A DNA stretch of 64,000 bases from an uncultured Actinomycetes bacterium (GTDB lineage Bacteria > Actinomycetota > Thermoleophilia > Gaiellales > Gaiellaceae), in NCBI GenBank assembly GCA_963717025.1, contig CAVQVJ010000003.1, forward strand, positions 964,969 through 1,028,968, in the 5' to 3' direction. Under the pieces are notes generated by a model. It did no database searches and was not told the DNA's origin. It saw only the letters and a program-made list of their open reading frames with translations. Position 1 is the first letter of the stretch. Each line of letters begins with the position of its first letter. Positions 9,438 to 21,794 of this stretch are shown piece by piece. The position numbers and the translations under genes were made by a program.

Positions 9438-10461
9438 GCCCCTGCTCGACGTTCGTGGGCTGGCGATGCGCTTCCCTCTCCGAAGCGGTCTCGGTCGCCG
9501 GCTCCGCGGCGAGCCACGACTGGAGCTACGTGCCGTCGACGGCGTCGATCTGGAGGTCCAGCAGGGCGAGACGGTGGGGCTGGTGGGGGAGTCGGGATGC
9601 GGCAAGACGACGCTCGGGCGCTGCATCGTCGGGCTCTACGAGCCGACCGCGGGGGAGGTGCGCTTTCGCGGGGAGACCCTTCCGGCGAAGCGAGACCGGC
9701 CGACTCGCCGGCAGATGCAGATGGTCTTCCAGGATCCGTACTCGTCGCTGAACCCGCGCATGACCGTCCGTCAGATGCTGCACGAGCTCTTGACGGTGCA
9801 CCGCGTCGTTCCGAAGGCGCGCGTCGACGACCGCTGCGCCGAGCTGCTCGACCTCGTAGGCCTCAGCCCCCGCTCTCTCGACGCGTACCCGCGCCAGTTC
9901 TCGGGCGGTCAGCGTCAGCGAGTCAGCATCGCTCGAGCGCTCGCCCTCGAGCCTGCGCTCCTCGTTGCCGACGAGCCGGTGTCTGCCCTGGACGTCTCGG
10001 TGCAGGCGACCGTCCTGAACCTGCTCGAGGAGCTGAGGGACAAGCTTGCGCTGAGCATCCTCCTGATCGCCCACAACCTGGCGATCGTCCGGCACACGTG
10101 CGACCGCGTTGCCGTCATGTACCTCGGGCGTATCGTCGAGACCGCGCCGACCGCAGCGCTCTTCTCCGATCCACGGCATCCGTACACGCAAGGGCTGCTG
10201 CGCGCCGTTCCCAGGCTGGCGCCCGGCCGCGCGCGCGCAGCAGTCGCCGTCGTCGGCGATCCGCCGAGCCCGGTCGAGCTCCCGAGCGGTTGCCGCTTCC
10301 ATCCGCGCTGCCCGATAGCGCAGGAGCCGCTCTGCCACGACGTCGACCCCGAGCTCCGTGGCGGCGACGGGCGCGACCATCGCGCAGCGTGTCACTTCGC
10401 CTGGGTCGAGAAACCCGAGAGCCACGTACCCGAGGTCGAACTGGACCAGGAGTCCGCGTGA
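9430..10461 (+). CDS. ABC transporter ATP-binding protein (DppF/OppF-like)
   Basis: GTG at 9430 ([11 protein letters not shown]...) is in frame with track ORF 9355..10461 and overlaps the upstream stop. Has [29 protein letters not shown] and CRFHPRCP. Confidence 0.85.
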
Positions 10462-10505
10462 TCGAGCGCGGCGTCCTTTGCTTCGAACCGTCCGCCTGAC
10501 GATGC

Positions 10506-10534
10506 TTGACGCGTTTTCGGCCCCCGTTTAGGGT
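10506..10534 (+). promoter_or_regulatory. Candidate sigma70-type promoter for the five-cistron small-membrane-protein operon
   Basis: TTGACG (10506..10511), a 17-nt spacer, then TAGGGT (10529..10534, TANNNT class). It lies in the 157-bp gap after the ABC operon, about 85 nt before the first ORF. Pattern match only. Confidence 0.35.
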
Positions 10535-10618
10535 GGCCTCACCTCGGCGGGCAACGCGAGGGACTGCGATGACACGACTGGCTGAGCCCTCTTCGGCTCC
10601 TCGATCGCTCTGCGGCGC

Positions 10619-10882
10619 ATGCTCGCGCTGATCGCCTCGTCCGGCTGGTGGCAGTTCGGGATAACGCTGGGCGTCGTCGTGATCGCGATCGCCGCGGTGA
10701 TCGTCATCACGATCGTGCTCCTCGCGATGAAGATCGCGAAGCAGGCGAAGGCGGCCGAGGCGGCGGTTGAAGTAGTGAGGCAGCAGACCGCCGAGCTCGA
10801 GGGCATCGGGCGGATCAACGACTCGGGCGTGCGGATCCTCCACTCTGCGCGCGCGCTCAGGAAGGTGGCGGTCGGGAAGTGA
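10619..10882 (+). CDS. Small bitopic membrane protein 1 of 5 (N-terminal TM helix plus helical tail, DUF948-like layout)
   Basis: 87 aa: MLALIASSGWWQFGITLGVVVIAIAAVIVITIVLLAMKIAKQAKAAEAAVEVVRQQTAELEG... High GC3. The stop overlaps the next start (GTGA). Confidence 0.6.
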   Translation: MLALIASSGWWQFGITLGVVVIAIAAVIVITIVLLAMKIAKQAKAAEAAVEVVRQQTAELEGIGRINDSGVRILHSARALRKVAVGK

Positions 10883-11166
10883 CCACGCTCGCGCTGTCCT
10901 TCAACGAGTACTGGGTGATCTCCCTGGCCATCGCCGCCGTCGCGGCGGCGGCCGTCGCGCTCCTGCTCGTCGCGCTCGTGCTGACGGTCCGGCGCATCGA
11001 GCGCTCGGTCGACGGCTTGCTCGAGGTCGCGGGCAAGGTCGGCGCGAACACCGCGAACATCCCGCAGCTCGAGGCGACGGCGCCGGTGCTGGCGCTGATC
11101 GTGGACGAGGCCATCGTCCAGGACGGCTACATGAACGCCCTCACGGACGGGTTCGGTGCGGCGTGA
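10879..11166 (+). CDS. Small bitopic membrane protein 2 of 5
   Basis: 95 aa. TM helix WVISLAIAAVAAAAVALLLVALVL followed by TVRRIERSVDGLLEVAGKV... GTGA overlaps at both ends. Confidence 0.65.
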   Translation: MTTLALSFNEYWVISLAIAAVAAAAVALLLVALVLTVRRIERSVDGLLEVAGKVGANTANIPQLEATAPVLALIVDEAIVQDGYMNALTDGFGAA

Positions 11167-11441
11167 GCGACCTGGACCTCCTCATCCTCCTGAGCGTCGT
11201 GCTGGCGGCGGTCGTCGTGGCCGTCGTCGCCGTCGCGCTGATCGAGGTACGCCGGGGGCTCACGAGGATCTCCGAAGGGCTGGCGACGCTCGGCTCCGCG
11301 CTGCAGGACGTCGAGTCGCAGCACCTGCGGCCACTCGAGCCGGCGGTGACGGCCATCAACGCGCAGTTCGACACCATCCTCGGCGCGTTTCCGGGCATCG
11401 CTCGCAAGGCCGCGATCGTGGCCGAGAGGAGGCCGCAGTGA
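11163..11441 (+). CDS. Small bitopic membrane protein 3 of 5
   Basis: 92 aa. TM helix LLILLSVVLAAVVVAVVAVALI followed by EVRRGLTRISEGLATLGSAL... GTGA overlaps at both ends. Confidence 0.65.
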   Translation: MSDLDLLILLSVVLAAVVVAVVAVALIEVRRGLTRISEGLATLGSALQDVESQHLRPLEPAVTAINAQFDTILGAFPGIARKAAIVAERRPQ

Positions 11442-11713
11442 TCCTCTGGTGGATCGGGAACGTCGTTCTGCTCGCGGTCGTCTTGCCGGTCGTGATCTAC
11501 CTGCTCCGCGGCGTGCTCGACGCCGCCAGGAGCATCGTCCCGAGCGTGCAGCAGATCGCCACCGTGGCTGCCGCAGGGTCGAAGGACCTCGACGCCGCCG
11601 CACTGCTCTTGACGACGCAGGATCAGGTGAAGCAGACGATCGCGGTAGCCGCCGATTACGGCGGCTCTCTGGACGTGATTCTCGACGACGCTCCTCCCGA
11701 GGACGGGCGATGA
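11438..11713 (+). CDS. Small bitopic membrane protein 4 of 5
   Basis: GTG at 11438 is in frame with the track ORF ending at 11713. 91 aa: VILWWIGNVVLLAVVLPVVIYLLRGVLDAARSIVPSVQQIA... The upstream part of track ORF 11156..11713 is an Arg-rich shadow. Confidence 0.6.
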   Translation: MILWWIGNVVLLAVVLPVVIYLLRGVLDAARSIVPSVQQIATVAAAGSKDLDAAALLLTTQDQVKQTIAVAADYGGSLDVILDDAPPEDGR

Positions 11714-12339
11714 ACGCGGCCGGCTTCGTCACGATCCTCGCCGTCGCCCTCATCGTCCTCGCGCTCGTCTACTACCTCGTCTCCGTGATCGTGCAGCTCC
11801 GCAAGATCACCGCCGGCCTCGACGAGGCCATCGTCGGTGTGAGCGGGATCGTGGAGAAGAGCGCGCCGGTCAACGACGTCGTGACGACGATCAACGGGCA
11901 GCTCGACGCGGGCGTCGACCTGCTCGAGGGCCTGTTGGTGAAGAAGGCCGGCCTGGTCGACGCCGTCGGTCTCGTGGACGGCCTCTATCCCGGGGCAGCT
12001 GCCGCCGGGCTCAGGAACTTCCCGGAGAGCGTCACGATCACGACGCCGCGCATCGGCGAGGTCTATACGAAAGGGACACTCACGCTCGCACGGCTCGGTC
12101 GCGAGGCGCCGATCGCCGCCGGGAACCCGGCCGGCCCAGCCCTCCGCGACGTCGAGCGGGGAAGCCTCGCGGCGCGGATGCTGTATCCCGAGATCCGGCA
12201 GTCAAGGCCGGAGTCCCTGCCGAGGTCTCCCGTCATCGGCACCGACGCGCCGGTCCAGTACGAGGAGCGGGAGGACATCGGGAAGCCGCGGAAGCAGATG
12301 CCCGGGCACGTGGCGTCCCCCGATCCGGAAGCGGCCTAG
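11710..12339 (+). CDS. Bitopic membrane protein 5 of 5 (same N-terminal layout, longer C-terminal extension)
   Basis: ATG at 11710 (ATGA overlap) is in frame with the track ORF ending at 12339. 209 aa: MNAAGFVTILAVALIVLALVYYLVSVIVQLRKITAGLDEAIVGVSGIVEKSAPVNDVV... Confidence 0.65.
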   Translation: MNAAGFVTILAVALIVLALVYYLVSVIVQLRKITAGLDEAIVGVSGIVEKSAPVNDVVTTINGQLDAGVDLLEGLLVKKAGLVDAVGLVDGLYPGAAAAGLRNFPESVTITTPRIGEVYTKGTLTLARLGREAPIAAGNPAGPALRDVERGSLAARMLYPEIRQSRPESLPRSPVIGTDAPVQYEEREDIGKPRKQMPGHVASPDPEAA

Positions 12340-12502
12340 ATGGTCGATCGGAAATTCACGCGGGCCGGCTGGCGGCCACGACACGGCGCCGGATCGACAC
12401 TCGCGCGCGTCGCACAGGCGTCCAGCCTGCACGACGCGTACGTGCGACGCCCGGCTTGGTCGTGACCGCCCCCGGCTGCGCGCCAATTTCCGATCGACCA
12501 TC
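12339..12502. repeat. 164-bp imperfect hairpin element bounded by perfect 18-bp inverted repeats
   Basis: GATGGTCGATCGGAAATT (12339..12356) is the exact reverse complement of AATTTCCGATCGACCATC (12485..12502). Imperfect complementarity continues inward (GCGgGCCGGctGGCGGcCACGAC versus the complement GCGcaGCCGGggGGCGGtCACGAC), and there is an inner GCGTCGCAC/GTGCGACGC pair. The element starts at the last base of the preceding stop codon. Confidence 0.8.
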
Positions 12503-12590
12503 CGCTCGCAAGCCTGCGGTGCGAGGCTCCTCTGCATCGGCGCCGAACCTCCTCGAGGCCTTTTCCGTACTCTGAGACGAAAGGAGCCCT

Positions 12591-13469
12591 GTGCAGACCC
12601 CTGCGGCATTCGAATACGAGCGCGCGACCAGTGTGGAGGGCGCGATCGCCGCGCTGCAGCGGCTGGGCTCCGACGCACGCATCATCGCCGGTGGACACAG
12701 CCTCCTCCCGATGATGAAGCTCCGGCTGGCGAAGCCGAAGCACCTGATCGACATCAACGACCTCGCCGAGCTCGCGTACATCGATGAGGAGGGCGACGAG
12801 GTACGCATCGGGGCGCTGACCCGGCACGTGCAGCTGCAGACGTCGGACGTGCTCGCCCGCCACTTTCCGCTGTTTCGCGACGCCGAGGATGTCATCGCCG
12901 ACCCGGTCGTGCGCAACCGCGGAACCATCGGTGGCTCGCTCTGCCAGGCGGATGCGGCGGAGGACCTCGCGGCCGTTTGTGCGGCGGTCAAGGCCAAGGC
13001 TGTTATCCGTGGCGCCGCCGGCGAGCGCGTCGTCTCGATGGAGGACTTTCACGTCGGCCCGTACCAGACGGCGGTAGGCGACGGCGAGATGCTCACCGAG
13101 ATCCGCCTTCCGCTCCGGCCGGGCGGCGGCAGCGCGCACGAGAAGGTCGAGCGCCGGGCCGGAGACTGGGCGATCGCCGCTGCGTCGGCCGCAGTCTGGA
13201 TCGAAGACGGGAAGATCGCCGACGCGGGGCTCGCGCTCAGCGCGGTCGGGCTCACCACCATCCATCTCCCGCGCGCCGAGGAGCTCCTTCGGGGCCAGGC
13301 TCCGTCGGAGGAGCTCTTCGCGCAGGCCGGTGAGGTCGCGTCGGCAGACTGCTCGCCGACTCCGGACGGACGAGGGCCCGTCGACTACAAGCGCCATCTC
13401 GCCGGCGTCCTCACGCAGCGTGCCCTGGGCCGTGCCGCTGCTCGTGCTGTCGGACAGGAGGCCTCATGA
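12591..13469 (+). CDS. coxM: Aerobic CO dehydrogenase medium (FAD-binding) subunit
   Basis: 292 aa. FAD_binding_5 pattern (FEYERATSVEGAIAAL...ARIIAGGHSLLPMMKLRLA), AAAGGAG RBS before a GTG start, first gene of an M-S-L set. Confidence 0.85.
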   Translation: MQTPAAFEYERATSVEGAIAALQRLGSDARIIAGGHSLLPMMKLRLAKPKHLIDINDLAELAYIDEEGDEVRIGALTRHVQLQTSDVLARHFPLFRDAEDVIADPVVRNRGTIGGSLCQADAAEDLAAVCAAVKAKAVIRGAAGERVVSMEDFHVGPYQTAVGDGEMLTEIRLPLRPGGGSAHEKVERRAGDWAIAAASAAVWIEDGKIADAGLALSAVGLTTIHLPRAEELLRGQAPSEELFAQAGEVASADCSPTPDGRGPVDYKRHLAGVLTQRALGRAAARAVGQEAS

Positions 13470-13951
13470 ACGTCTCGATATCGATCAACGGCGAGCAGGT
13501 CGCCCGCGAGATCGAGCCGCGCCAGCTGCTCGTGCACTTCATCCGCGAGACGGACGGCCTCACCGGAACGCACTGGGGCTGCGACACCTCGAACTGCGGC
13601 GCCTGTGTCGTGCTGATGGACGGCGCGCCGGTCAAGTCCTGCACGATCCTCGCCGCCATGTGCGAGGGGCACGAGATCCGCACCGTCGAGTCCCTCGAGG
13701 TCGACGGCCGGCTCGACCCGGTCCAGATGGGCTTCCACGAGCAGCACGCCCTCCAGTGCGGGTTCTGCACGCCGGGGATGCTGATGACCGCGCGCGCCCT
13801 GCTGGACGAGAGCCCGGACCCGAGCGAGCAGGAGATCCGCGTAGCGATCTCGGGCGGAATCTGCCGTTGCACGGGCTACAAGAACATCGTCGGTGCCATC
13901 CGCTGGGCCGCCGAGTACGAAGCCGCCGCTAAACGGGAGGTGCCAGCGTGA
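13466..13951 (+). CDS. coxS: Aerobic CO dehydrogenase small ([2Fe-2S]) subunit
   Basis: 161 aa. Has both 2Fe-2S cysteine clusters (GCDTSNCGACVV and QCGFCTPG...CRCTGY). ATGA overlap with coxM. Confidence 0.9.
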   Translation: MNVSISINGEQVAREIEPRQLLVHFIRETDGLTGTHWGCDTSNCGACVVLMDGAPVKSCTILAAMCEGHEIRTVESLEVDGRLDPVQMGFHEQHALQCGFCTPGMLMTARALLDESPDPSEQEIRVAISGGICRCTGYKNIVGAIRWAAEYEAAAKREVPA

Positions 13952-16332
13952 CCGTCGTCGAGAACCTTCCGAGCCAGAAGACCGAGCGCCCCATCGGCTT
14001 CGGCCGCCTGAAGCGCAAGGAGGACGCGCGCTTCATCCGCGGCCAGGGGCGCTACCTCGACGACATCCGGCTGCCGGGGATGGTGCACGGCGCGATGTTG
14101 CGCAGCCCGTATGCGCACGCGCGCATCGTCTCGATCGACACGTCGCGGGCGCTCGCGCACCCGAATGTCGCCGCGGTCATCACCGCCAAGGACCTGGAGA
14201 CACTCGGGCTCGCGTGGATGCCGACGATCTCCTACGACACGCAGGCCGTGCTCGCGGGCGACAAGGTCCGCTTCCAGGGGCAGGAGGTCGCGTTCGTGAT
14301 CGCTACCGACGAGTACTCCGCGAACGACGCGCTCGAGCTGATCGACGTCGAGTACGAGCCGCTGCCCGCGATCGTCAACGCCCGCAAGGCGCTCGACCCC
14401 GACGCGCCGCTGATCCGTGACGACAAGGCCGGGCAGCGAGACAACCTCGCGAGCCCGACCTGGGAGGCGGGAGACGAGGGGGCGACGAACCGCGCGTTCG
14501 CCGAGGCCGACACCGTCGTGACGCGGGACATCATCTATCCCCGCTGCCATCCGGCACCGCTCGAGACCTGCGGGATGATCGCCGACTTCAACCCGGAGAC
14601 CGGCCAGCTCGACATCTACAACGGCAACCAGGCGCCGCACGCCCATCGCACGGTCTACGCGCACGTCGCCGGGCTCGCGGAGCACATGATCCGGGTCATC
14701 ACCTCCGACATCGGAGGCGGGTTCGGCAACAAGGTGCCCGTGTACCCGGGCTACGTGTGTGCGATCGCCGGCTCGATCGTGGCCGGCGTCCCGGTGAAGT
14801 GGGTCGAGAACCGCACCGAGAACCTCGTGTCGACCGGGTTCGCGCGCGACTACGTCATGCACGCCGAGATGTGCTCGAAGGACGGCAAGATCACCGGCCT
14901 CAAGGTCGACGTCATCGCCGACCACGGCGCCTTCGACTCGACCGCGCAGCCGACGAAATTCCCGGCCGGCTTCTTCCACATCGTCTGCGGTTCCTACGAC
15001 CTCCAGGCCTCCCACGTGAAGGTCAAGGCGGTCTACACGAACAAGGCGCCGGGAGGCGTCGCCTACCGCTGCTCGTTCCGCATCACGGAGGCCGTCTACC
15101 TCGTCGAGCGGATGGTCGATGCGCTCGCGCTCGAGATGAAGGTCGACCCGATCGAGCTGCGGATGCGGAGCTTCATCGCGCCCGAGCAGTTCCCGTACGA
15201 GACGACCACCGGCTGGACGTACGACTCCGGCAACTACGCGGAGACGATGCGCGTCGCGATGGATATCGCCGGCTACGAAGACCTGCGCCGCGAGCAGGAG
15301 GAGAAGCGTGCCCGCGGCGAGCTGATGGGCATCGGCGTGTCCTTCTTCACCGAGGGCGTCGGCGCCGGGCCACGCAAGCACATGGACATCCTCGGGCTGG
15401 CCATGAACGACGGCGCCGACCTGCGCGTGCACCCGTCGGGCAAGGCGGTGGTCTCGATCAGCGCCCAGACGCAGGGGCAGGGCCACGAGACGACGTTCGC
15501 GCAGATCGTCGCCGAGGAGCTCGGCATCCCACCCGAGGACGTCGAGGTCCGCCACGGCGACACCGACCGCTCTCCGTACGGGCTCGGCACCTACGGCAGC
15601 CGCTCGACGCCGGTCTCCGGAGCGGCCGTTGCGGTCGTCTCGCGCAAGGTGCGCGACAAGGCGCGGCTGATCGCGTCCACGATGCTCGAGGCGAGCCCGG
15701 ACGACCTCGCGTGGGAGAAGGGCCGCTGGTACGTGAAGGGCGACCCCGAGAAGGGCGCGCTGATCGAGGACATCGCGGTCCGTGCGTACAGCGGCGAGCC
15801 GATGCCGGAAGGGATGGAGGGCGGGCTCGACGCGCAGGTCATCTACGACCCGCCGAACCTCACGTACCCCTACGGCGCGTACATCGCGGTCGTCGACATC
15901 GACCCGGACACCGCCGAGGTCAAGGTCAGGCGCTTCATCGCGGTGGACGACTGCGGCGTGCGCATCAACCCGATGGTCGTCGACGGCCAGATCCACGGCG
16001 GCCTCGCCGAGGGCATCGGCATCGCGCTGATGGAGGTCCTCACGTTCGACGAGGAGGGCAACTGCCTCAACTCGTCGTTCGCGGATTACCTGATCCCGAC
16101 CGCGCTCGAATGCCCCGACTTCGAGCTCGGCGAGACCGTCACGCCGTGCCCGCACCACCCGCTCGGGGCGAAGGGCGTCGGCGAGTCGCCGAACGTCGGC
16201 TCGCCGCCCGCGATCGTGAACGCGGTCATCGACGCCCTGCACTCCTCCCATGGCGTCGACCACATCGACATGCCCTGCACCCCGGCCCGCGTCTGGGCTG
16301 CGATGCAGGGACGACCCGAGCCTCCGCAATGA
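13948..16332 (+). CDS. coxL: Aerobic CO dehydrogenase large (molybdopterin, Mo-Cu) subunit, form I
   Basis: 794 aa xanthine-dehydrogenase-family large subunit. It carries the form I active-site loop VAYRCSFR (within NKAPGGVAYRCSFRITEAV). M-S-L gene order. Confidence 0.85.
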   Translation: MTVVENLPSQKTERPIGFGRLKRKEDARFIRGQGRYLDDIRLPGMVHGAMLRSPYAHARIVSIDTSRALAHPNVAAVITAKDLETLGLAWMPTISYDTQAVLAGDKVRFQGQEVAFVIATDEYSANDALELIDVEYEPLPAIVNARKALDPDAPLIRDDKAGQRDNLASPTWEAGDEGATNRAFAEADTVVTRDIIYPRCHPAPLETCGMIADFNPETGQLDIYNGNQAPHAHRTVYAHVAGLAEHMIRVITSDIGGGFGNKVPVYPGYVCAIAGSIVAGVPVKWVENRTENLVSTGFARDYVMHAEMCSKDGKITGLKVDVIADHGAFDSTAQPTKFPAGFFHIVCGSYDLQASHVKVKAVYTNKAPGGVAYRCSFRITEAVYLVERMVDALALEMKVDPIELRMRSFIAPEQFPYETTTGWTYDSGNYAETMRVAMDIAGYEDLRREQEEKRARGELMGIGVSFFTEGVGAGPRKHMDILGLAMNDGADLRVHPSGKAVVSISAQTQGQGHETTFAQIVAEELGIPPEDVEVRHGDTDRSPYGLGTYGSRSTPVSGAAVAVVSRKVRDKARLIASTMLEASPDDLAWEKGRWYVKGDPEKGALIEDIAVRAYSGEPMPEGMEGGLDAQVIYDPPNLTYPYGAYIAVVDIDPDTAEVKVRRFIAVDDCGVRINPMVVDGQIHGGLAEGIGIALMEVLTFDEEGNCLNSSFADYLIPTALECPDFELGETVTPCPHHPLGAKGVGESPNVGSPPAIVNAVIDALHSSHGVDHIDMPCTPARVWAAMQGRPEPPQ

Positions 16333-17300
16333 CGTTCGGCGCCGTGTCTCCGCGAGCACAGGAGCTCGCCGCAGAGGGCACGGCGTTCGTGGTCGCGACG
16401 GTCGTGCGCGCGCAGCGCCCGACGAGCGTGAAGGCGGGTGATGTCGCGCTCGTTCTCGCCGACGGCACGATCGAGGGTTTCGTCGGCGGCGTGTGCACGC
16501 AGGCGAGCGTCCGTGCCTACTCGCTGAAGGCGTTCGAGACCGGGGAGGCGCTGCTCCTGCGAGTTCTCCCCGAAGGCTCGGTGGGCGAGCGGGACGGAAT
16601 CGGTGTCGAGGCCGCGAACGAGGAGGGAGCCGTGACGGTCCAGAACACGTGCCTGTCGGGCGGCGGGATCGAGGTCTTCCTCGAGCCGGTGGTCCCGGCG
16701 CCGCGCGTCCTCGTCGTCGGCGACACGCCGATCGCGACCGCGGTCCGGTCGCTCGGCCCGGGGCTCGGGCTCGACCTCGTCGTCGTCGAGGCGGGGGCTC
16801 CCGAGCCCGCTTCCGGCGACCTCGCGCTCGTCGTCGCCTCGCACGGGCGCGACGAGCTGCACGTTCTCCGCCGCGCCCTCGAGGCGGGCGTTCCGTATGT
16901 CGGCCTCGTCGCCAGCCGCAAGCGCGGCGCCGGCGTGCTCGCGGACCTGCGTGCCGACGGGGTTCCGGAGGAGCAGCTCGGGCTGATCGACGTGCCCGCC
17001 GGCATCGACGTCGGAGCCCAGACCCCCGCAGAGATCGCGCTCTCGATCCTCGCGACCGTGGTCGCCGTGCGTCGCGGGAAGCACGCCGTCGCGTCGGCCG
17101 AACGCGCAGACGTCCCCGTGCTCGCGAGCGTGCCGAGCCCCGCTCCGTCCGCTCCGCTGGCGATCGACCCGATCTGCGGGATGACGGTCGCCGCCGTCGC
17201 GAGCACGCCCTCGGTCGTGCACGAGGGCGAGACGGTCTACTTCTGCTGCGACGGATGCCGGGCCGCGTTCGAGGCGCGGCACTCCGCGCAGGCCCTATGA
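16329..17300 (+). CDS. XdhC/CoxF/CoxI-family maturation protein fused to a C-terminal YHS/TRASH-type metal-binding domain
   Basis: ATG 16329 (ATGA overlap with coxL) is in frame with the track ORF ending at 17300. XdhC N-terminal pattern (VVATVVRAQRPTSVKAGDVALVLADGTIEGFVGGVC), Rossmann part (RVLVVGDTPIA..), then DPICGMTV....GETVYFCCDGCRAAFE at the C-terminus. Confidence 0.75.
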   Translation: MTFGAVSPRAQELAAEGTAFVVATVVRAQRPTSVKAGDVALVLADGTIEGFVGGVCTQASVRAYSLKAFETGEALLLRVLPEGSVGERDGIGVEAANEEGAVTVQNTCLSGGGIEVFLEPVVPAPRVLVVGDTPIATAVRSLGPGLGLDLVVVEAGAPEPASGDLALVVASHGRDELHVLRRALEAGVPYVGLVASRKRGAGVLADLRADGVPEEQLGLIDVPAGIDVGAQTPAEIALSILATVVAVRRGKHAVASAERADVPVLASVPSPAPSAPLAIDPICGMTVAAVASTPSVVHEGETVYFCCDGCRAAFEARHSAQAL

Positions 17301-18220
17301 GCCCCGGCGGGGCCACGGGCGACGCCGCCGACGAGGTCCGCGCTCTCGTACCCGACATCGAGACGCTCGCTCTGTGCCTCGCCGACGTCGACTACCTCGT
17401 CGACGAGGGCCTGGCGACCTCGATGTTCCTCAGCCTGCGCCTCCCGCAGCCGCTGCTGCTCGAGGGCGAGGCGGGCGTCGGCAAGACCGAGGCCGCGAAG
17501 TCGCTGGCGCTCGTCCTCGACACCCCGCTCGTTCGCCTGCAGTGCTACGAGGGCATCGACGCAGCGGAAGCGCTGTACGAGTGGAACTACCCCCGACAGC
17601 TCCTCAGCATCCGGCTCGCCGACTCCCGTGACTCGCCTCTCGAGGAGGAGCAGCTCTTCGGCCCCGAGTACCTGATCCGGCGCCCGCTCCTGCGCGCGCT
17701 CGAGCACCCGGGCCCGCGGCCCGCAGTGCTCCTGATCGACGAGATCGACCGTGCCGACGACGACTTCGAGGCGTTCCTGCTCGAGCTGCTCGCGGACGCC
17801 AGCGTGACGATCCCGGAGATCGGCACCGTGCGCGCGACGCATCCGCCCGCCATCGTCCTGACCTCCAACCGGACACGCGACCTGCACGATGCCGTCAAGC
17901 GCCGCTGCCTCTATCACCGGATCGAGTATCCGACCCCCGAGCGGGAGGTGGAGATCGTGCGCCGGCGCGTGAAGGGCTCGTCGGAGACGCTGGCCGTCCA
18001 GGTCGCGAACGCGGTCGCGCGCATGCGCGAGAGCGACGTGCAGAAGCCGCCGGGGATCGCCGAGTCGATCGACTGGCTGGCCGCGCTGAACCTCCTCGGC
18101 GTCGAGCGCCTGGACGTCGCGACGGTGGACCGGACGCTCGGGTCGGTGCTGAAGTACTCGGACGACCAGGAGGTGATCCGCGCGGCCGGCCTCGAGCAGC
18201 TCGTGCACGGCGGTGACTGA
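17297..18220 (+). CDS. coxD: MoxR-type AAA+ ATPase (CoxD-like)
   Basis: ATG 17297 (ATGA overlap). LLLEGEAGVGKTEAAKSLA Walker A, LLIDEIDRA Walker B, RCLYHRIEYP sensor region. It sits directly before a VWA protein, as in cox clusters. Confidence 0.8.
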   Translation: MSPGGATGDAADEVRALVPDIETLALCLADVDYLVDEGLATSMFLSLRLPQPLLLEGEAGVGKTEAAKSLALVLDTPLVRLQCYEGIDAAEALYEWNYPRQLLSIRLADSRDSPLEEEQLFGPEYLIRRPLLRALEHPGPRPAVLLIDEIDRADDDFEAFLLELLADASVTIPEIGTVRATHPPAIVLTSNRTRDLHDAVKRRCLYHRIEYPTPEREVEIVRRRVKGSSETLAVQVANAVARMRESDVQKPPGIAESIDWLAALNLLGVERLDVATVDRTLGSVLKYSDDQEVIRAAGLEQLVHGGD

Positions 18221-19571
18221 CGCCCACGTGTCGGGCGGCGCGTTCGGCGTCGAGACGTTCGAGCTCGACCTCCCGCCGCTCGCCGGGGCGCTGAGCCGGC
18301 GGCTGCACGATGCCGGCCTCCCCGTGACCCCCGCCCGTGCTGCGGACTTCGCACATGCGCTCACCCTCGTCCGGCCGATCGCGCGCCGGCGGCTGTACTG
18401 GACCGCGCGCGCGGTGTTCGTGTCGGACCCGGGGCAGCTCAAAGCCTTCGACAGGGTGTTCTTCTCGATCTTCGGGCGGGCCGACGGGAGTCTCGAGCCC
18501 GAGGATGCTTGGTCCGCCGGCTCGGCGCCCGGCGACCGGTCGAGGCCCGAGTCGTCCCGCCGGGAGTCGGAGCTCGGAACGCTCCTGTCGTCGTCGGCAG
18601 CCGGCGAGCGCGACGACCAGGAGCCGGCCGAGCTCGACGTGCCAGTGGCGATGGCGAGCGACGAGGAGCTGCTCGGCCGCAAGAGCTTCGACGCGCTCGA
18701 GCCGCACGAGCTCGCCCAGCTCTTCCGGCTGATGTCGCGGCTCAAGCTCAAGACCCCGCTCCGCCTGACACGGCGCTACGAGAAGCGGCGCCGTGGCGAT
18801 CGGGTCGATCTGCGGAGGACCCTACGCACCAGCCTGCGCACGGCGGGCGATCCGATCCGGCTCGCGCGGCGCCGCCGACGCGTCGCCCGCCGGCGGCTCG
18901 TGCTGCTCTGCGACATCTCCGGCTCGATGGAGCCGTATGCACGCGCCTACCTCCAGTTCCTGACCTGTGCCGCAGGGAGTGGTCCCAATGTCGACGCGTT
19001 CGTGTTCGCGACCCGGCTCACGCGCGTGACCCGCGCCCTTGCCTCGCGCAACCCCGAGCGCGCGATCCAGGCCGCCGCGGCCGCCGCGCCCGACTGGTCG
19101 AGCGGGACCCGGATCGGCGAGGCGCTTCGGACGTTCAACGACCGGCATGGGCGTCGCGGGATGGCGCGCGGGGCGGTGGTCGTGATCCTCTCCGACGGCT
19201 GGGAGCGCGGCGACCCGAAGCTCGTCGGACGGGAGCTCGAACGCCTCGCGCGCCTGGCGCACCGGATCGTGTGGGTCAATCCGCGAGTCGCGGCGGACGC
19301 CTTCTCCGTGCAGTCCAGAGGCATGGTGGCTGCGCTTCCGCACTGCGACGCGCTCGTGAGCGGCCACAGCTTCGAGGCGCTCGGCGAGGTCGTCGAGGCG
19401 ATCGGGAGGGAGTGGTGCGAGCGTCGGCGATTGCAGCCCGCCGCGGTCGCCGCGGAAGAGCCCGAGCCCTGGCCGAGCGCTACCCCGGTCCCGGGCAGCT
19501 CGGTGGGGATGCCGAGCGGTTACGGCCCGAGCAGAGGGAACGTCACGCCAGGCTGGGTGACCGACGAATGA
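18213..19571 (+). CDS. coxE: VWA-domain protein (CoxE-like)
   Basis: 452 aa. The MIDAS-containing segment LVLLCDISGSMEPYARAYLQF and the RIVWVNP motif are typical of the CoxE family. GTG start overlaps the coxD stop. Confidence 0.8.
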   Translation: MTDAHVSGGAFGVETFELDLPPLAGALSRRLHDAGLPVTPARAADFAHALTLVRPIARRRLYWTARAVFVSDPGQLKAFDRVFFSIFGRADGSLEPEDAWSAGSAPGDRSRPESSRRESELGTLLSSSAAGERDDQEPAELDVPVAMASDEELLGRKSFDALEPHELAQLFRLMSRLKLKTPLRLTRRYEKRRRGDRVDLRRTLRTSLRTAGDPIRLARRRRRVARRRLVLLCDISGSMEPYARAYLQFLTCAAGSGPNVDAFVFATRLTRVTRALASRNPERAIQAAAAAAPDWSSGTRIGEALRTFNDRHGRRGMARGAVVVILSDGWERGDPKLVGRELERLARLAHRIVWVNPRVAADAFSVQSRGMVAALPHCDALVSGHSFEALGEVVEAIGREWCERRRLQPAAVAAEEPEPWPSATPVPGSSVGMPSGYGPSRGNVTPGWVTDE

Positions 19572-19756
19572 GCGAGACCGAGCCCAAGAGGTGCATCTTT
19601 CCGGGCTGCGAGCGCCCCGCCGTGCCTCCGCACCCGATGGGCGGACCGCAACCCGCATTCTGCGATCTCGAGGAGCACAACGCGCTGACCGCCCACCAGG
19701 AGCGCCAGCGCCTCGCGAGCGAGTCCTCGGGCGGCCCCGTCGGGAACGAGAGATGA
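19568..19756 (+). CDS. Small Cys/His-containing protein (62 aa), function unknown
   Basis: ATG 19568 (ATGA overlap with coxE) is in frame with the track ORF ending at 19756. Sequence: MSETEPKRCIFPGCERPAVPPHPMGGPQPAFCDLEEHNALTAHQERQR... It has a C-x4-C...C-x4-H arrangement. Confidence 0.45.
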   Translation: MSETEPKRCIFPGCERPAVPPHPMGGPQPAFCDLEEHNALTAHQERQRLASESSGGPVGNER

Positions 19757-19789
19757 TCAGCAGGTCCCCGACCAGGAGGAGATGCGGCG

Positions 19790-20248
19790 ATGGCTGACGA
19801 GGCTTACCGCGCGGTCTTTCTGCGCGTCCACCCGACCGGGAAGATGGTGCTCAGCCTGACCACCGAGTCCGACGGCAATGAAGCCGAGTACGCGCGACTC
19901 GTCGCCGACGAGCTCGGGGTCCCGGCGCTCGACGTGAAGGTCGTTGCCGCGGACACCGACCGCTTCGGTGTCGGCCACGGCTTCAACACGAGCCCGAGCG
20001 GCGGCACCCAGGCGGCGATTGTCAGCGCGGCGGGAAAGATCCGCGACAAGGCGCAGCTGCTCGCCGGGGCGGCTCTGGAGACGTCACCTGAGGCGCTCGA
20101 GTGGGTGAACGGGGCTTGGGTCGCGGACGGAAGTGACGCCACGCAGGCCAAGACGCTCGAGGAGATCGCCCTCTACGCGCACGGCACGGGCGTCCTGCCC
20201 CCGGGAGTCGAGGGCGGGCTCGACGCGCAGACCGTCTACCGGGACTGA
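19790..20248 (+). CDS. Free-standing ORF derived from an internal segment of a CoxL-type large subunit (domain-sized paralog or gene remnant)
   Basis: 152 aa with an AGGAGG RBS 10 nt upstream. It aligns by eye with CoxL residues of the 13948..16332 product: LRVHPTGKMVLSLTTESDGNEAEYARLVADELGVP..VKVVAADTDRF versus LRVHPSGKAVVSISAQTQGQGHETTFAQIVAEELGIP..VEVRHGDTDRS, and later EGGLDAQTVY versus EGGLDAQVIY. Confidence 0.55.
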   Translation: MADEAYRAVFLRVHPTGKMVLSLTTESDGNEAEYARLVADELGVPALDVKVVAADTDRFGVGHGFNTSPSGGTQAAIVSAAGKIRDKAQLLAGAALETSPEALEWVNGAWVADGSDATQAKTLEEIALYAHGTGVLPPGVEGGLDAQTVYRD

Positions 20249-21036
20249 CCCTCGTCCTCCTGTCGGCCCATGCCTCGCGTGCGGACGTAGAGGAAGAGGA
20301 AGAACGACGTCACGAGCGCGAGGGGCAGCGCGGTCCCATTGGACACGTCCACGGCGACCATCCCGAACCAGAGGAAGAGAAAGAACACGAGCGCCCAGAC
20401 GAAGCTCGAGATGCCCGGATCGACGATCGGAACGGGACGCCACTCGATCTCGAAGACGTCCGCCCAGTCCGGTGTCGCGGCTACCTGACCCACGCCCTCC
20501 TGCCACGTGGCATCGACTGCGATCGAGACCTCGTCGGCGACCTTCAGCGCCCCGAAGAGCGCCGAGTACGGCGTCATTCCCCAGTCGGACTGCCTGACGA
20601 CCGCGCTGCCGCTGAGCCTGCCGTCGTCGCCGACGACGAGCTCGAGCTCGAGCGGATGGACGGTGCCGACGAGCGTCAGGTCGCCCTGCACAATCATCCG
20701 GCCGCCGTCGGCGGCCTGCACCGCGGTCGAGCGGAACTCGATCTCCGTCCCCTTCAGGATCTCGTCGTCGATCGTCTGCTCGATGTTCGCCTTGTCGTCG
20801 TCGCCGAGCGGCTGCATCCCGCCGAACCCGTCCTGCACGCGAAGGGACGACGCGTCGGCCTCGAGCACGAGGCTCGTCTGCGTGGGATCCTCGCCGACCT
20901 CGAGCGTGGCCTGCCACGACGCGACCTGAATCAGGAGGTCGTGCCCCGCCTGGGCCGCGGCCCCGCCGCGCCAGGTCCTGACCCGGAGCGCGCCGTTCTC
21001 GGGCCCGAACGTGTGCGTCCCTGCCGGGATCCCCAT
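20236..21036 (-). CDS. YceI-like domain protein with a C-terminal two-TM membrane anchor
   Basis: 266 aa. YceI-type pattern (HTFGPENGALRVRTWRGG..AGHDL..., GDLTLVGTVHPLEL). The C-terminus ISSFVWALVFFLFLWFGMVAV...LALVTSFFLFLYV is hydrophobic. Confidence 0.7.
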   Translation of the reverse strand: MGIPAGTHTFGPENGALRVRTWRGGAAAQAGHDLLIQVASWQATLEVGEDPTQTSLVLEADASSLRVQDGFGGMQPLGDDDKANIEQTIDDEILKGTEIEFRSTAVQAADGGRMIVQGDLTLVGTVHPLELELVVGDDGRLSGSAVVRQSDWGMTPYSALFGALKVADEVSIAVDATWQEGVGQVAATPDWADVFEIEWRPVPIVDPGISSFVWALVFFLFLWFGMVAVDVSNGTALPLALVTSFFLFLYVRTRGMGRQEDEGQSR

Positions 21037-21079
21037 GGGTCGGCCGAGACTCTAAGACGCTTCGCTAAGGTCCGTCGCC

Positions 21080-21511
21080 ATGGCGGTGGAGCTCGAGCAT
21101 CCGTTCTCGACCTCGAAATCGATCGACGAGAGCTACGCAGCGATTCTCGACCTCGAGCGCGTGGTGCCGTGCGTCGAGGGAGCCAGCCTGCTCGGGACGA
21201 CCGGGCCGGACTCCGTCGACACCCAGATCGACATCAAGTTGGGCGCGATGTCGATGCAGTTCACCGGCACGGTCGAGATCGTCGAGCAGGACGCCGAAGC
21301 GCACCGGGTGGTGATGGCCGTCAGGTCGAAGGAGGCCGGTGGTCAGGGGCACGCGGACGCGGACGTCGTGTTCGCGTTGAGCGACGGCGGAGGGACGATC
21401 CAGACCAACGCGCGCATCACGGGCAAGGCCGCGTCGATGGGCGAGGGAGTCGTCCACGGCGTGCTGGACGCGCTGGTCAAGGACTTCGCGGGCAAGCTCG
21501 GAAACATCTGA
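21080..21511 (+). CDS. coxG: CoxG-family SRPBCC protein
   Basis: 143 aa. Typical CoxG pattern (F....S.DE.YAAILDLERVVPCVEGA.L........D..I..KLGAMSMQFTG.VEIVE.D...H). Confidence 0.8.
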   Translation: MAVELEHPFSTSKSIDESYAAILDLERVVPCVEGASLLGTTGPDSVDTQIDIKLGAMSMQFTGTVEIVEQDAEAHRVVMAVRSKEAGGQGHADADVVFALSDGGGTIQTNARITGKAASMGEGVVHGVLDALVKDFAGKLGNI

Positions 21512-21521
21512 TCCGCCTCCA

Positions 21522-21794
21522 ATGGCGACCATCACCATGCGACGCATCCGCGAGGGCGAGGTTCCCTTCGACGGCGGAACCGCGATCCAGGAGGACGCCG
21601 ACCGGCCCGTCTTCCACGGCAACGGCCCCGACGACTACGTGTGCGTGAACTGTGGCAACGTCCTCGCGACCGCGATGCAGCCCGTGCAGATGACGAAGAA
21701 GGTCCGCGTCCGCTGCGGGCGCTGCTCGACGGTAAACGTCTCGGTGATCGACGGCTACGAAGCGTCGTCAGGAGGGCCCGAGCGCAAGGAGTGA
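21522..21794 (+). CDS. Small zinc-ribbon protein (90 aa)
   Basis: CVNCGN ... CGRCST, that is two CxxC pairs. Good GC3. Follows coxG by 10 nt. Confidence 0.5.
   Translation: MATITMRRIREGEVPFDGGTAIQEDADRPVFHGNGPDDYVCVNCGNVLATAMQPVQMTKKVRVRCGRCSTVNVSVIDGYEASSGGPERKE

Follow-up and report, generated by a model that had tools for sequence, protein, structure and literature searches.

Five small membrane protein genes conserved at the head of the carbon monoxide dehydrogenase operon of Thermoleophilia: a possible membrane tether

The array and its place in the operon

An array of five small genes, here named O1 to O5, lies immediately upstream of a form I carbon monoxide dehydrogenase (CODH) gene cluster in the genome of an uncultured Actinomycetes bacterium (GTDB lineage Bacteria; Actinomycetota; Thermoleophilia; Gaiellales; Gaiellaceae). 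The array was studied within a stretch of 64,000 nucleotides from contig CAVQVJ010000003.1 of GenBank assembly GCA_963717025.1 (positions 964,969 to 1,028,968, forward strand), which we call the window and whose numbering is used below. A preliminary description, made from the letters alone, had reported five open reading frames (ORFs) linked by four overlaps of 4 nt and encoding bitopic membrane proteins of common plan; coordinates, sizes and junction letters (GTGA, GTGA, GTGA and ATGA, from O1/O2 to O4/O5) all match exactly (Table 1).

Table 1. Features of the array and adjoining genes (positions in the window unless a locus is named; SD, Shine–Dalgarno sequence; GC3, G+C fraction at third codon positions; dN/dS, ratio of non-synonymous to synonymous substitution rates)
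Feature	Position	Strand	Remarks
Promoter-like TTGACG-17 nt-TAGGGT	10506..10534	+	Read from sequence; recurs in relatives
Leader upstream ORF (uORF) MTRLAEPSSAPRSLCGACSR	10569..10631	+	20 codons; own SD GAGGGA
O1	10619-10882	+	87 aa; ATG start; bitopic; GC3 0.93; dN/dS 0.23; kept in ~160 loci
O2	10879-11166	+	95 aa; GTG start; bitopic; GC3 0.98; dN/dS 0.29
O3	11163-11441	+	92 aa; GTG start; bitopic; GC3 0.94; invariant H54
O4	11438-11713	+	91 aa; GTG start; bitopic; GC3 0.86; dN/dS 0.17
O5	11710-12339	+	209 aa; ATG start; bitopic: transmembrane helix, long helix, low-confidence tail
Near-perfect hairpin	12339..12502		164 nt; 44-nt inverted arms, first 18 nt perfect
coxM, CODH FAD-binding subunit	12591..13469	+	Pfam FAD_binding_5, CO_deh_flav_C
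coxS, 2Fe-2S subunit	13466..13951	+	Orthologues with Pfam Fer2_2; 4-nt overlap with coxM
coxL, form I large subunit	13948..16332	+	AYRCSFR signature
Maturation genes: XdhC/CoxF-like with YHS, AAA+ CoxD-like (~17300-18220), VWA CoxE (18213-19571)	16329..19571	+	Pfam; first two starts approximate
coxG	21080..21511	+	143 aa; SRPBCC domain only; Pfam COXG (PF06240), E 9e-11
Cys/His ORF	L159 10120-10386; L167 11043-11255; L168 2842-3078		Conserved; 70-88 aa

Relatives of the array were gathered by two scans. A genome scan, taking one genome per species, found an O5 relative in 518 genomes, of which the best 80 were retrieved—all of them metagenome-assembled genomes—and together with three relatives found through O5 these gave 83 genome loci; a metagenome scan seeded with the most divergent O5 sequences supplied 80 metagenome loci. 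Individual loci are cited by label (L001 and so on).

Spurious ORFs are common in high-GC DNA, and an 8-kb stretch here holds 49 ORFs of at least 50 aa, so that O1 to O5 might be suspected of being chance open frames and not genes. That suspicion is refuted and commands virtually no credence. In-frame GC3 is 0.86–0.98 across the five ORFs, similar to that of coxMSL, against 0.41–0.63 for alternative or antisense ORFs in this 68% GC window, and pairwise dN/dS against 11–13 relatives is 0.17–0.29, compared with 0.14 for coxM. The preliminary description had allowed that the ORFs might lack conservation in relatives; homologues instead number in the thousands, with the overlaps between the genes retained. 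O1 to O5 are genuine genes under purifying selection.

The translational coupling proposed earlier is likewise borne out: of 77 genome loci, 70–74 retain the −4 overlaps O1/O2, O2/O3 and O3/O4, and the metagenome loci do so in 36/46, 49/54 and 47/61 cases, respectively. The O4/O5 junction varies across loci from −4 to +14 nt. The GTG start of O4 is preceded by a strong SD sequence, GAGGAGG.

The gene order O1-O2-O3-O4-O5-coxM-coxS-coxL was found in 83/83 genome loci, wherever sequence was available, and recurs in the metagenome loci; over both sets it is near-exceptionless, and all loci with a named source belong to Thermoleophilia. The start of coxM falls less than 500 nt from O5 in 112 of the 119 loci where this could be tested (four of the seven misses being boundary artefacts), with a gap of mostly 11–44 nt in relatives. 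In the three relatives found through O5, the array, encoding proteins of 87, 96–97, 92, 89–90 and 201–216 aa, stands directly before coxMSL behind upstream genes that all differ; in the window, an Opp/Dpp-type ABC transporter lies upstream. Identity of coxL across array-bearing genome loci is 89–98%. Operon linkage of O1–O5 to coxMSL is near-obligate and can be taken as established. The placement of the array just ahead of a form I cluster, with shared strand and operon-like spacing, thus stands as first described, and the survey of relatives that the description called for finds the array beside coxMSL nearly always across Thermoleophilia. Its suggested connection with CODH had been offered as pure speculation; in view of the conserved gene order, the link to CODH is now the best-supported part of the interpretation.

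No such array was present in the CODH clusters of Nonomuraea (CoxM 59% identical), Oligotropha or Thermomicrobium. The gene directly before the array is coxG in L105, L095, L110, L093 and L090, and another coxM', coxS' or coxL' in L141, L140, L151, L138, L139, L053 and L071. In L141 (7459-14365), L151 (3598-12375) and L139 (26-4909), the genes directly upstream of O1 are either an additional coxM'/coxS' pair or a complete coxM'S'L' set of form I-like type (AYACSFR/AYSCSFR), which leaves the array embedded between two sets of CODH genes.

The array had been credited with a promoter of its own. The TAGGGT hexamer of this candidate fits the actinobacterial TANNNT type of −10 element; a generic sigma-70 scan scored the candidate below threshold and called no promoter or terminator in 10300-12700. 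An element of the form CTTGAC..GTTTTCG..TA(G/A/T)GGT, its spacer conserved, nevertheless recurs upstream of O1 in L004, L006, L018, L001, L003, L012, L009, L016 and L137, behind upstream genes that differ from locus to locus. Because the O5–coxM gap is so short in most relatives, the element is better read as a promoter most likely serving the whole operon than as one private to the array.

Between this element and O1 lies a leader uORF that shares 13 nt with the beginning of O1, read in a different frame, and stops inside the first O1 codons. In the window, the coupled chain probably starts one ORF earlier, with the uORF as a sixth coupled ORF. A similar peptide, MTR[RL]AE...GVACSR, ends in the first O1 codons in L004, L006, L018, L027, L002, L048 and L025, and the distance from uORF start to O1 start is 50 nt in both the window and L002. 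Across relatives, three different arrangements initiate the same gene: in the window and loci like it, a leader of ~85 nt, an SD sequence and a uORF of 17–21 codons precede an O1 without its own SD; in eight loci O1 is of leaderless type, the −10 box ending 6–9 nt before the start codon; and in 35 loci O1 has an SD of its own.

In the window, a hairpin (folding energy −112 kcal/mol, z = −11) inserted between O5 and coxM widens their gap to 251 nt; its first nucleotide is the final base of the O5 stop codon. It was absent from the closest relative (L004, with a gap of 14 nt) and from the 168 loci compared, is single-copy in the window and is specific to this genome among those examined. It could be an insertion resembling miniature inverted-repeat transposable elements or repetitive extragenic palindromes, or a structure that stabilises or attenuates the mRNA.

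Family relationships and predicted structure

Scans of O1–O5 against Pfam and NCBIfam returned nothing significant; COXG, MHYT and transporter families are matched by none of the five. The preliminary description had likened the array to DUF948-type general stress membrane proteins, and DUF948 (PF06103) is indeed the most recurrent weak Pfam match, at 13.1, 14.0 and 10.5 bits for O1, O2 and O5, with no match for O3 or O4; the gathering cut-off, however, is 37.2 bits. Ten of 46 O2 orthologues match DUF948 at E ≤ 1 (best E 0.012). Comparison of the O1–O5 profiles with a genuine DUF948 protein from Arthrobacter using hhalign gave a probability of at most 1.4%, in a test of low sensitivity against a single target sequence. 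Membership of DUF948 was accordingly rejected, with scores far below the cut-off and no profile link through the Arthrobacter protein. What survives of the likeness is the layout—a transmembrane (TM) helix, a helical rod and a tail, the tail being long in O5 only—and not a family relationship, and the profile check assigns the five products to no other Pfam or NCBIfam family either.

The same likeness underlies one alternative view of the array. DUF948 carries a general stress protein annotation, and O1–O5, with their DUF948-like layout and weak matches for three of the five, might be general membrane or starvation-stress proteins co-regulated with CODH for persistence, making no contact with the enzyme. 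That CODH of trace-gas oxidisers is a persistence enzyme (PMC12202499) can be counted in favour of such a role. Co-regulation alone, though, would not explain why, over hundreds of species in two orders, the gene order and the short distance to coxM persist when every other neighbour changes; besides the failed DUF948 assignment, the window holds no extra copies of O1–O5 elsewhere. We consider this explanation decidedly unlikely.

Homologues of O5 exceed 7,000 at 90% clustering, nearly all named 'hypothetical protein' and with a Pfam domain on none of the matches listed, yet they fall into 331 representative clusters at 50% identity (1.84 billion representatives searched); the family is therefore environmentally abundant and phylogenetically narrow. 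For O2, 7,998 of the 8,000 scored candidates were homologues, and none of the 120 listed carried a Pfam domain. Both searches were saturated by close orthologues and did not extend to distant relatives or named proteins. Named sources of O5 homologues are Gaiellaceae, Solirubrobacteraceae and records labelled Thermoleophilaceae, Miltoncostaeaceae or Thermoleophilia; a query with a divergent O5 found matches only in Solirubrobacteraceae and unclassified Actinomycetota metagenome genomes, and a tblastn search of plasmids with O5 found none.

That the five proteins are diverged paralogues, as first proposed, is upheld in part. When orthologue profiles were compared pairwise using hhalign, with 20 reversed-sequence decoys as controls (never above 12% probability nor better than E 0.0025), four of the ten pairs beat all decoys: O3–O5 (90%, E 1.6e-6), O1–O2 (84%, E 7e-6), O2–O5 (68%, E 5e-5) and O2–O4 (54%, E 1.3e-4). 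The O3–O5 alignment spans the region after the TM helix, O3 resembling the N-terminal half of O5. The other six pairs stay at decoy level. Since the four pairs connect all five proteins, common descent seems likely, if weakly demonstrated.

A single, strongly hydrophobic segment occurs in each protein close to its N-terminus (Kyte–Doolittle 2.7–3.4 in a 19-residue window; about residues 15–37 in O1), in keeping with the shared plan reported at the outset. Lysine and arginine are nearly absent before it and number 1.9–3.0 in the 15 residues after it (~48 orthologues per family), from which the positive-inside rule predicts that all five proteins sit with the N-terminus outside and the C-terminus inside. 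The cytoplasmic parts of all five show a hydrophobic periodicity of 3.35–3.6 residues (3.35 in O1, whose C-terminal part is amphipathic and helical), its power being reached by only 0–3 of 300 shuffles, as expected for helices in a bundle or coiled coil. There is almost no cysteine and little histidine in O1–O5, which makes a redox cofactor unlikely.

An AlphaFold2 model of O5 has a single helix over residues 3–80 (block-mean predicted local distance difference test score, pLDDT, 79–96), followed by short helices that end near residue 137, and confidence is low past residue 138; that of O2 has two helices (2–59 and 61–91; mean pLDDT 81). The O5 tail carries the invariant motifs EVYT.G..LARLGR..P, GPA.R, LY and SPV.G..P; across 48 orthologues of 41–86% identity, Y119, G122, L126, L129, G130, R131, P134, G142, R146, L158, Y159, P174, G177 and P181 do not vary. 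Invariant residues within a tail of low model confidence form the pattern usually seen where a segment folds upon binding its partner. With O5 as query, a profile search of PDB sequences turned up nothing beyond noise, and Foldseek found no match for the O5 model in the PDB.

CoxG and the possible role of the array

In Mycobacterium smegmatis, electrons from CODH reach menaquinone via CoxG, an SRPBCC lipid carrier that is tethered by a flexible linker and C-terminal TM helix for menaquinone extraction (PMC12202499). The CoxG of Oligotropha, 205 aa long, likewise has a hydrophobic C-terminal tail. The window coxG, located by position through orthologues in other loci, encodes a protein that ends at the SRPBCC domain, with neither linker nor membrane anchor, and in ~65 loci the array is found together with CoxG orthologues of 143–145 aa that lack any hydrophobic tail. 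As judged from sequence, the CoxG of array-bearing clusters is anchorless, a point we regard as established; the usual membrane anchor of CODH, as seen in Oligotropha and Mycobacterium, is thus missing just where five bitopic proteins appear.

Because the five genes form the conserved front end of a CODH operon throughout Thermoleophilia, we propose that O1–O5 are accessory membrane subunits of this Mo-Cu enzyme, assembled into a hetero-oligomeric stalk by which CODH, and perhaps also the anchorless CoxG, would be tethered to the membrane. That the proteins oligomerise, that they touch CODH or CoxG and that they act as a tether is inferred, and we hold the proposal as a whole tentatively, at somewhat less than even confidence; a hetero-oligomeric complex of O1–O5, as had been suggested from the coupling of the genes, appears plausible. 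According to this proposal, O1–O5 would be transcribed from the operon promoter ahead of coxMSL, and translational coupling would yield them in roughly fixed proportions. Each protein would insert in the N-out/C-in orientation, and the amphipathic cytoplasmic helices would pack into a hetero-oligomeric helical stalk. The tail of O5, conserved and predicted to be intrinsically unstructured, could then dock soluble CODH at the inner face of the membrane, and possibly also the quinone carrier CoxG, so that electrons from the CoxM flavin would be able to reach menaquinone. A bolder form of the tether, in which a hetero-pentameric coiled-coil stalk, in parallel to HucM of mycobacterial hydrogenase, holds the CODH dimer above the membrane and serves as docking rail or hydrophobic conduit for the CoxG menaquinone shuttle to the CoxM flavin, we think unlikely, and a quinone conduit within O1–O5 is pure conjecture.

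Several observations weigh against the tether. In Solirubrobacteraceae-type loci L159, L167 and L168, a small ORF and a divergent LysR gene stand between O5 and coxM; in L159 and L167, O1 is set apart from the cox-proximal O2–O5, with L167 also carrying a complete second array. Arrays are duplicated in loci of this type, in cases within 10 kb, and one array type (the first copy in L084, and L121) has no coxM immediately after O5. Three larger bitopic proteins of 238–364 aa are encoded just before O1 in L167 (1481-6691), L159 (3918-5696) and L084 (5979-8795); these proteins, from Solirubrobacteraceae-type and peat-soil loci, have an N-terminal TM helix and Asn/Thr/Ile/Gly-rich 'INxTAGxI' helical repeats, those of L167 and L159 also ending in a C-terminal Cys pair. 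A PsbP-like TM protein occurs in L167 and L159, too, as does a His-rich multi-pass protein in L167. These extra bitopic and PsbP-like proteins hint at a wider role in the membrane or envelope. In addition, an anchorless CoxG could bind the membrane peripherally and unaided, and all carriers of the array retrieved here are metagenome-assembled genomes.

From the extra genes one might conclude that the array belongs to a larger membrane or envelope complex, with the repeat-rich bitopic and PsbP-like proteins as further components and an indirect link to CODH through cofactor or metal import or sensing; the three additional TM proteins of L167, L159 and L084, and the PsbP-like protein and duplicated arrays of such loci, all fit that picture. 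The extra genes are absent, however, from the Gaiellaceae-type loci inspected in detail (the window and L001–L003), where only the five genes and coxMSL are found, and we look on a complex of this kind as very doubtful.

Another alternative would make the array a membrane platform for CODH maturation, on which apo-CODH is held with CoxD, CoxE and CoxF during Cu/S insertion at the Mo site. All three factors are encoded in the same operon, CoxF has a YHS domain of copper-binding type, moaA and moaC adjoin arrays in L159 and L167, and CoxD of Oligotropha occurs in the membrane fraction. Yet the array always lies at the coxM end or between sets of structural genes and never beside coxDEF; moreover, maturation factors are usually sub-stoichiometric, while a set of genes coupled tightly in front of the structural genes points to partners needed in stoichiometric amounts. 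On balance a maturation platform strikes us as rather unlikely.

Other small genes occur around these clusters. The tail of the window's cox cluster (19591-21794) holds a 68-aa ORF, a stand-alone CoxL MoCoBD_2 fragment of 152 aa (Pfam E 1.7e-14), a divergent gene for a 266-aa YceI-like protein, coxG and a zinc-ribbon ORF; the MoCoBD_2 fragment and YceI gene recur in L001–L003, L167 and L168. YceI proteins are polyisoprenoid-binding. In Solirubrobacteraceae-type loci, a Cys/His ORF of 70–88 aa (…CLYPGC…PPRYCD.E.HNASSTFQELKRLE…) lies between O5 and the divergent LysR gene.

Significance and comparison with known systems

A large share of atmospheric CO is removed by aerobic CODH. In soils and drylands, Thermoleophilia rank with the most abundant classes of bacteria (PMC8528921), and the route from soluble CODH to quinone has been solved only recently and for one mycobacterium, where it depends on membrane-anchored CoxG (PMC12202499). 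In Thermoleophilia that anchor is missing and a conserved, unannotated five-gene membrane module heads the operon instead; our searches of the literature on CODH in Thermoleophilia and Gaiellales, on CoxG and on DUF948 found no description of it. If the tether is real, O1–O5 would be lineage-specific CODH subunits, a concrete target for biochemistry and a marker for annotating thousands of 'hypothetical' proteins; if the pentameric stalk is real, Thermoleophilia would couple atmospheric CO oxidation to respiration by undescribed machinery. Even if the tether is wrong, the array offers five uncharacterised families whose functional context is unusually clear. Tethers or adaptors that keep a peripheral respiratory enzyme at the membrane are, as such, of a kind already known.

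The proposed stalk would resemble HucM of the mycobacterial hydrogenase Huc, reportedly a membrane-associated helical stalk on which a soluble, trace-gas oxidising enzyme is carried and through which it is linked to menaquinone. The enzyme is said to assemble around a homo-oligomeric tube made of HucM alone, as against the five different proteins encoded here.

In position, the closest counterparts are the membrane proteins CoxB and CoxC, whose genes stand immediately before coxM in Oligotropha carboxidovorans. Their lengths (321 and 402 aa) and annotations (a transporter and an MHYT-domain protein) set them apart from small bitopic proteins, and they are unrelated to O1–O5, in agreement with the preliminary description, which had called the proteobacterial proteins unrelated to the array.

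In layout, O1–O5 resemble DUF948 proteins such as FacZ of Staphylococcus aureus: the N-terminus is short and external, a single TM helix leads into a membrane-proximal helical rod in the cytoplasm, and the C-terminal tail is disordered, that of FacZ being partner-binding (PMC10914604); FacZ is predicted to oligomerise into a rod of ~15 nm (PMC10914604). DUF948 was a single gene in the one example examined, as against five distinct coupled paralogues here. That example, a bona fide DUF948 gene of 124 aa, comes from a plasmid of Arthrobacter sp. NicSoilB11 (region 25471-31438 of L169), where it lies downstream of, and on the same strand as, the genes for 6-hydroxynicotine oxidase and nicotine dehydrogenase (ndhABC), the latter a Mo-hydroxylase belonging to the xanthine oxidase family; ORF92, its DUF948 counterpart on pAO1, shows nicotine induction at the protein level (PMC6214936).

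In proposed function, the nearest parallel is the CoxG anchor of M. smegmatis and O. carboxidovorans, which, like O1–O5, is encoded in the CODH cluster and has a single TM helix; this helix keeps part of the machinery for electron transfer from CODH on the cytoplasmic side of the membrane (PMC12202499). The two share no sequence relationship, and they differ in build: the CoxG anchor is a tail fused to the SRPBCC carrier, whereas in Thermoleophilia coxM is preceded by separate genes for five bitopic proteins, each with a long helical domain.

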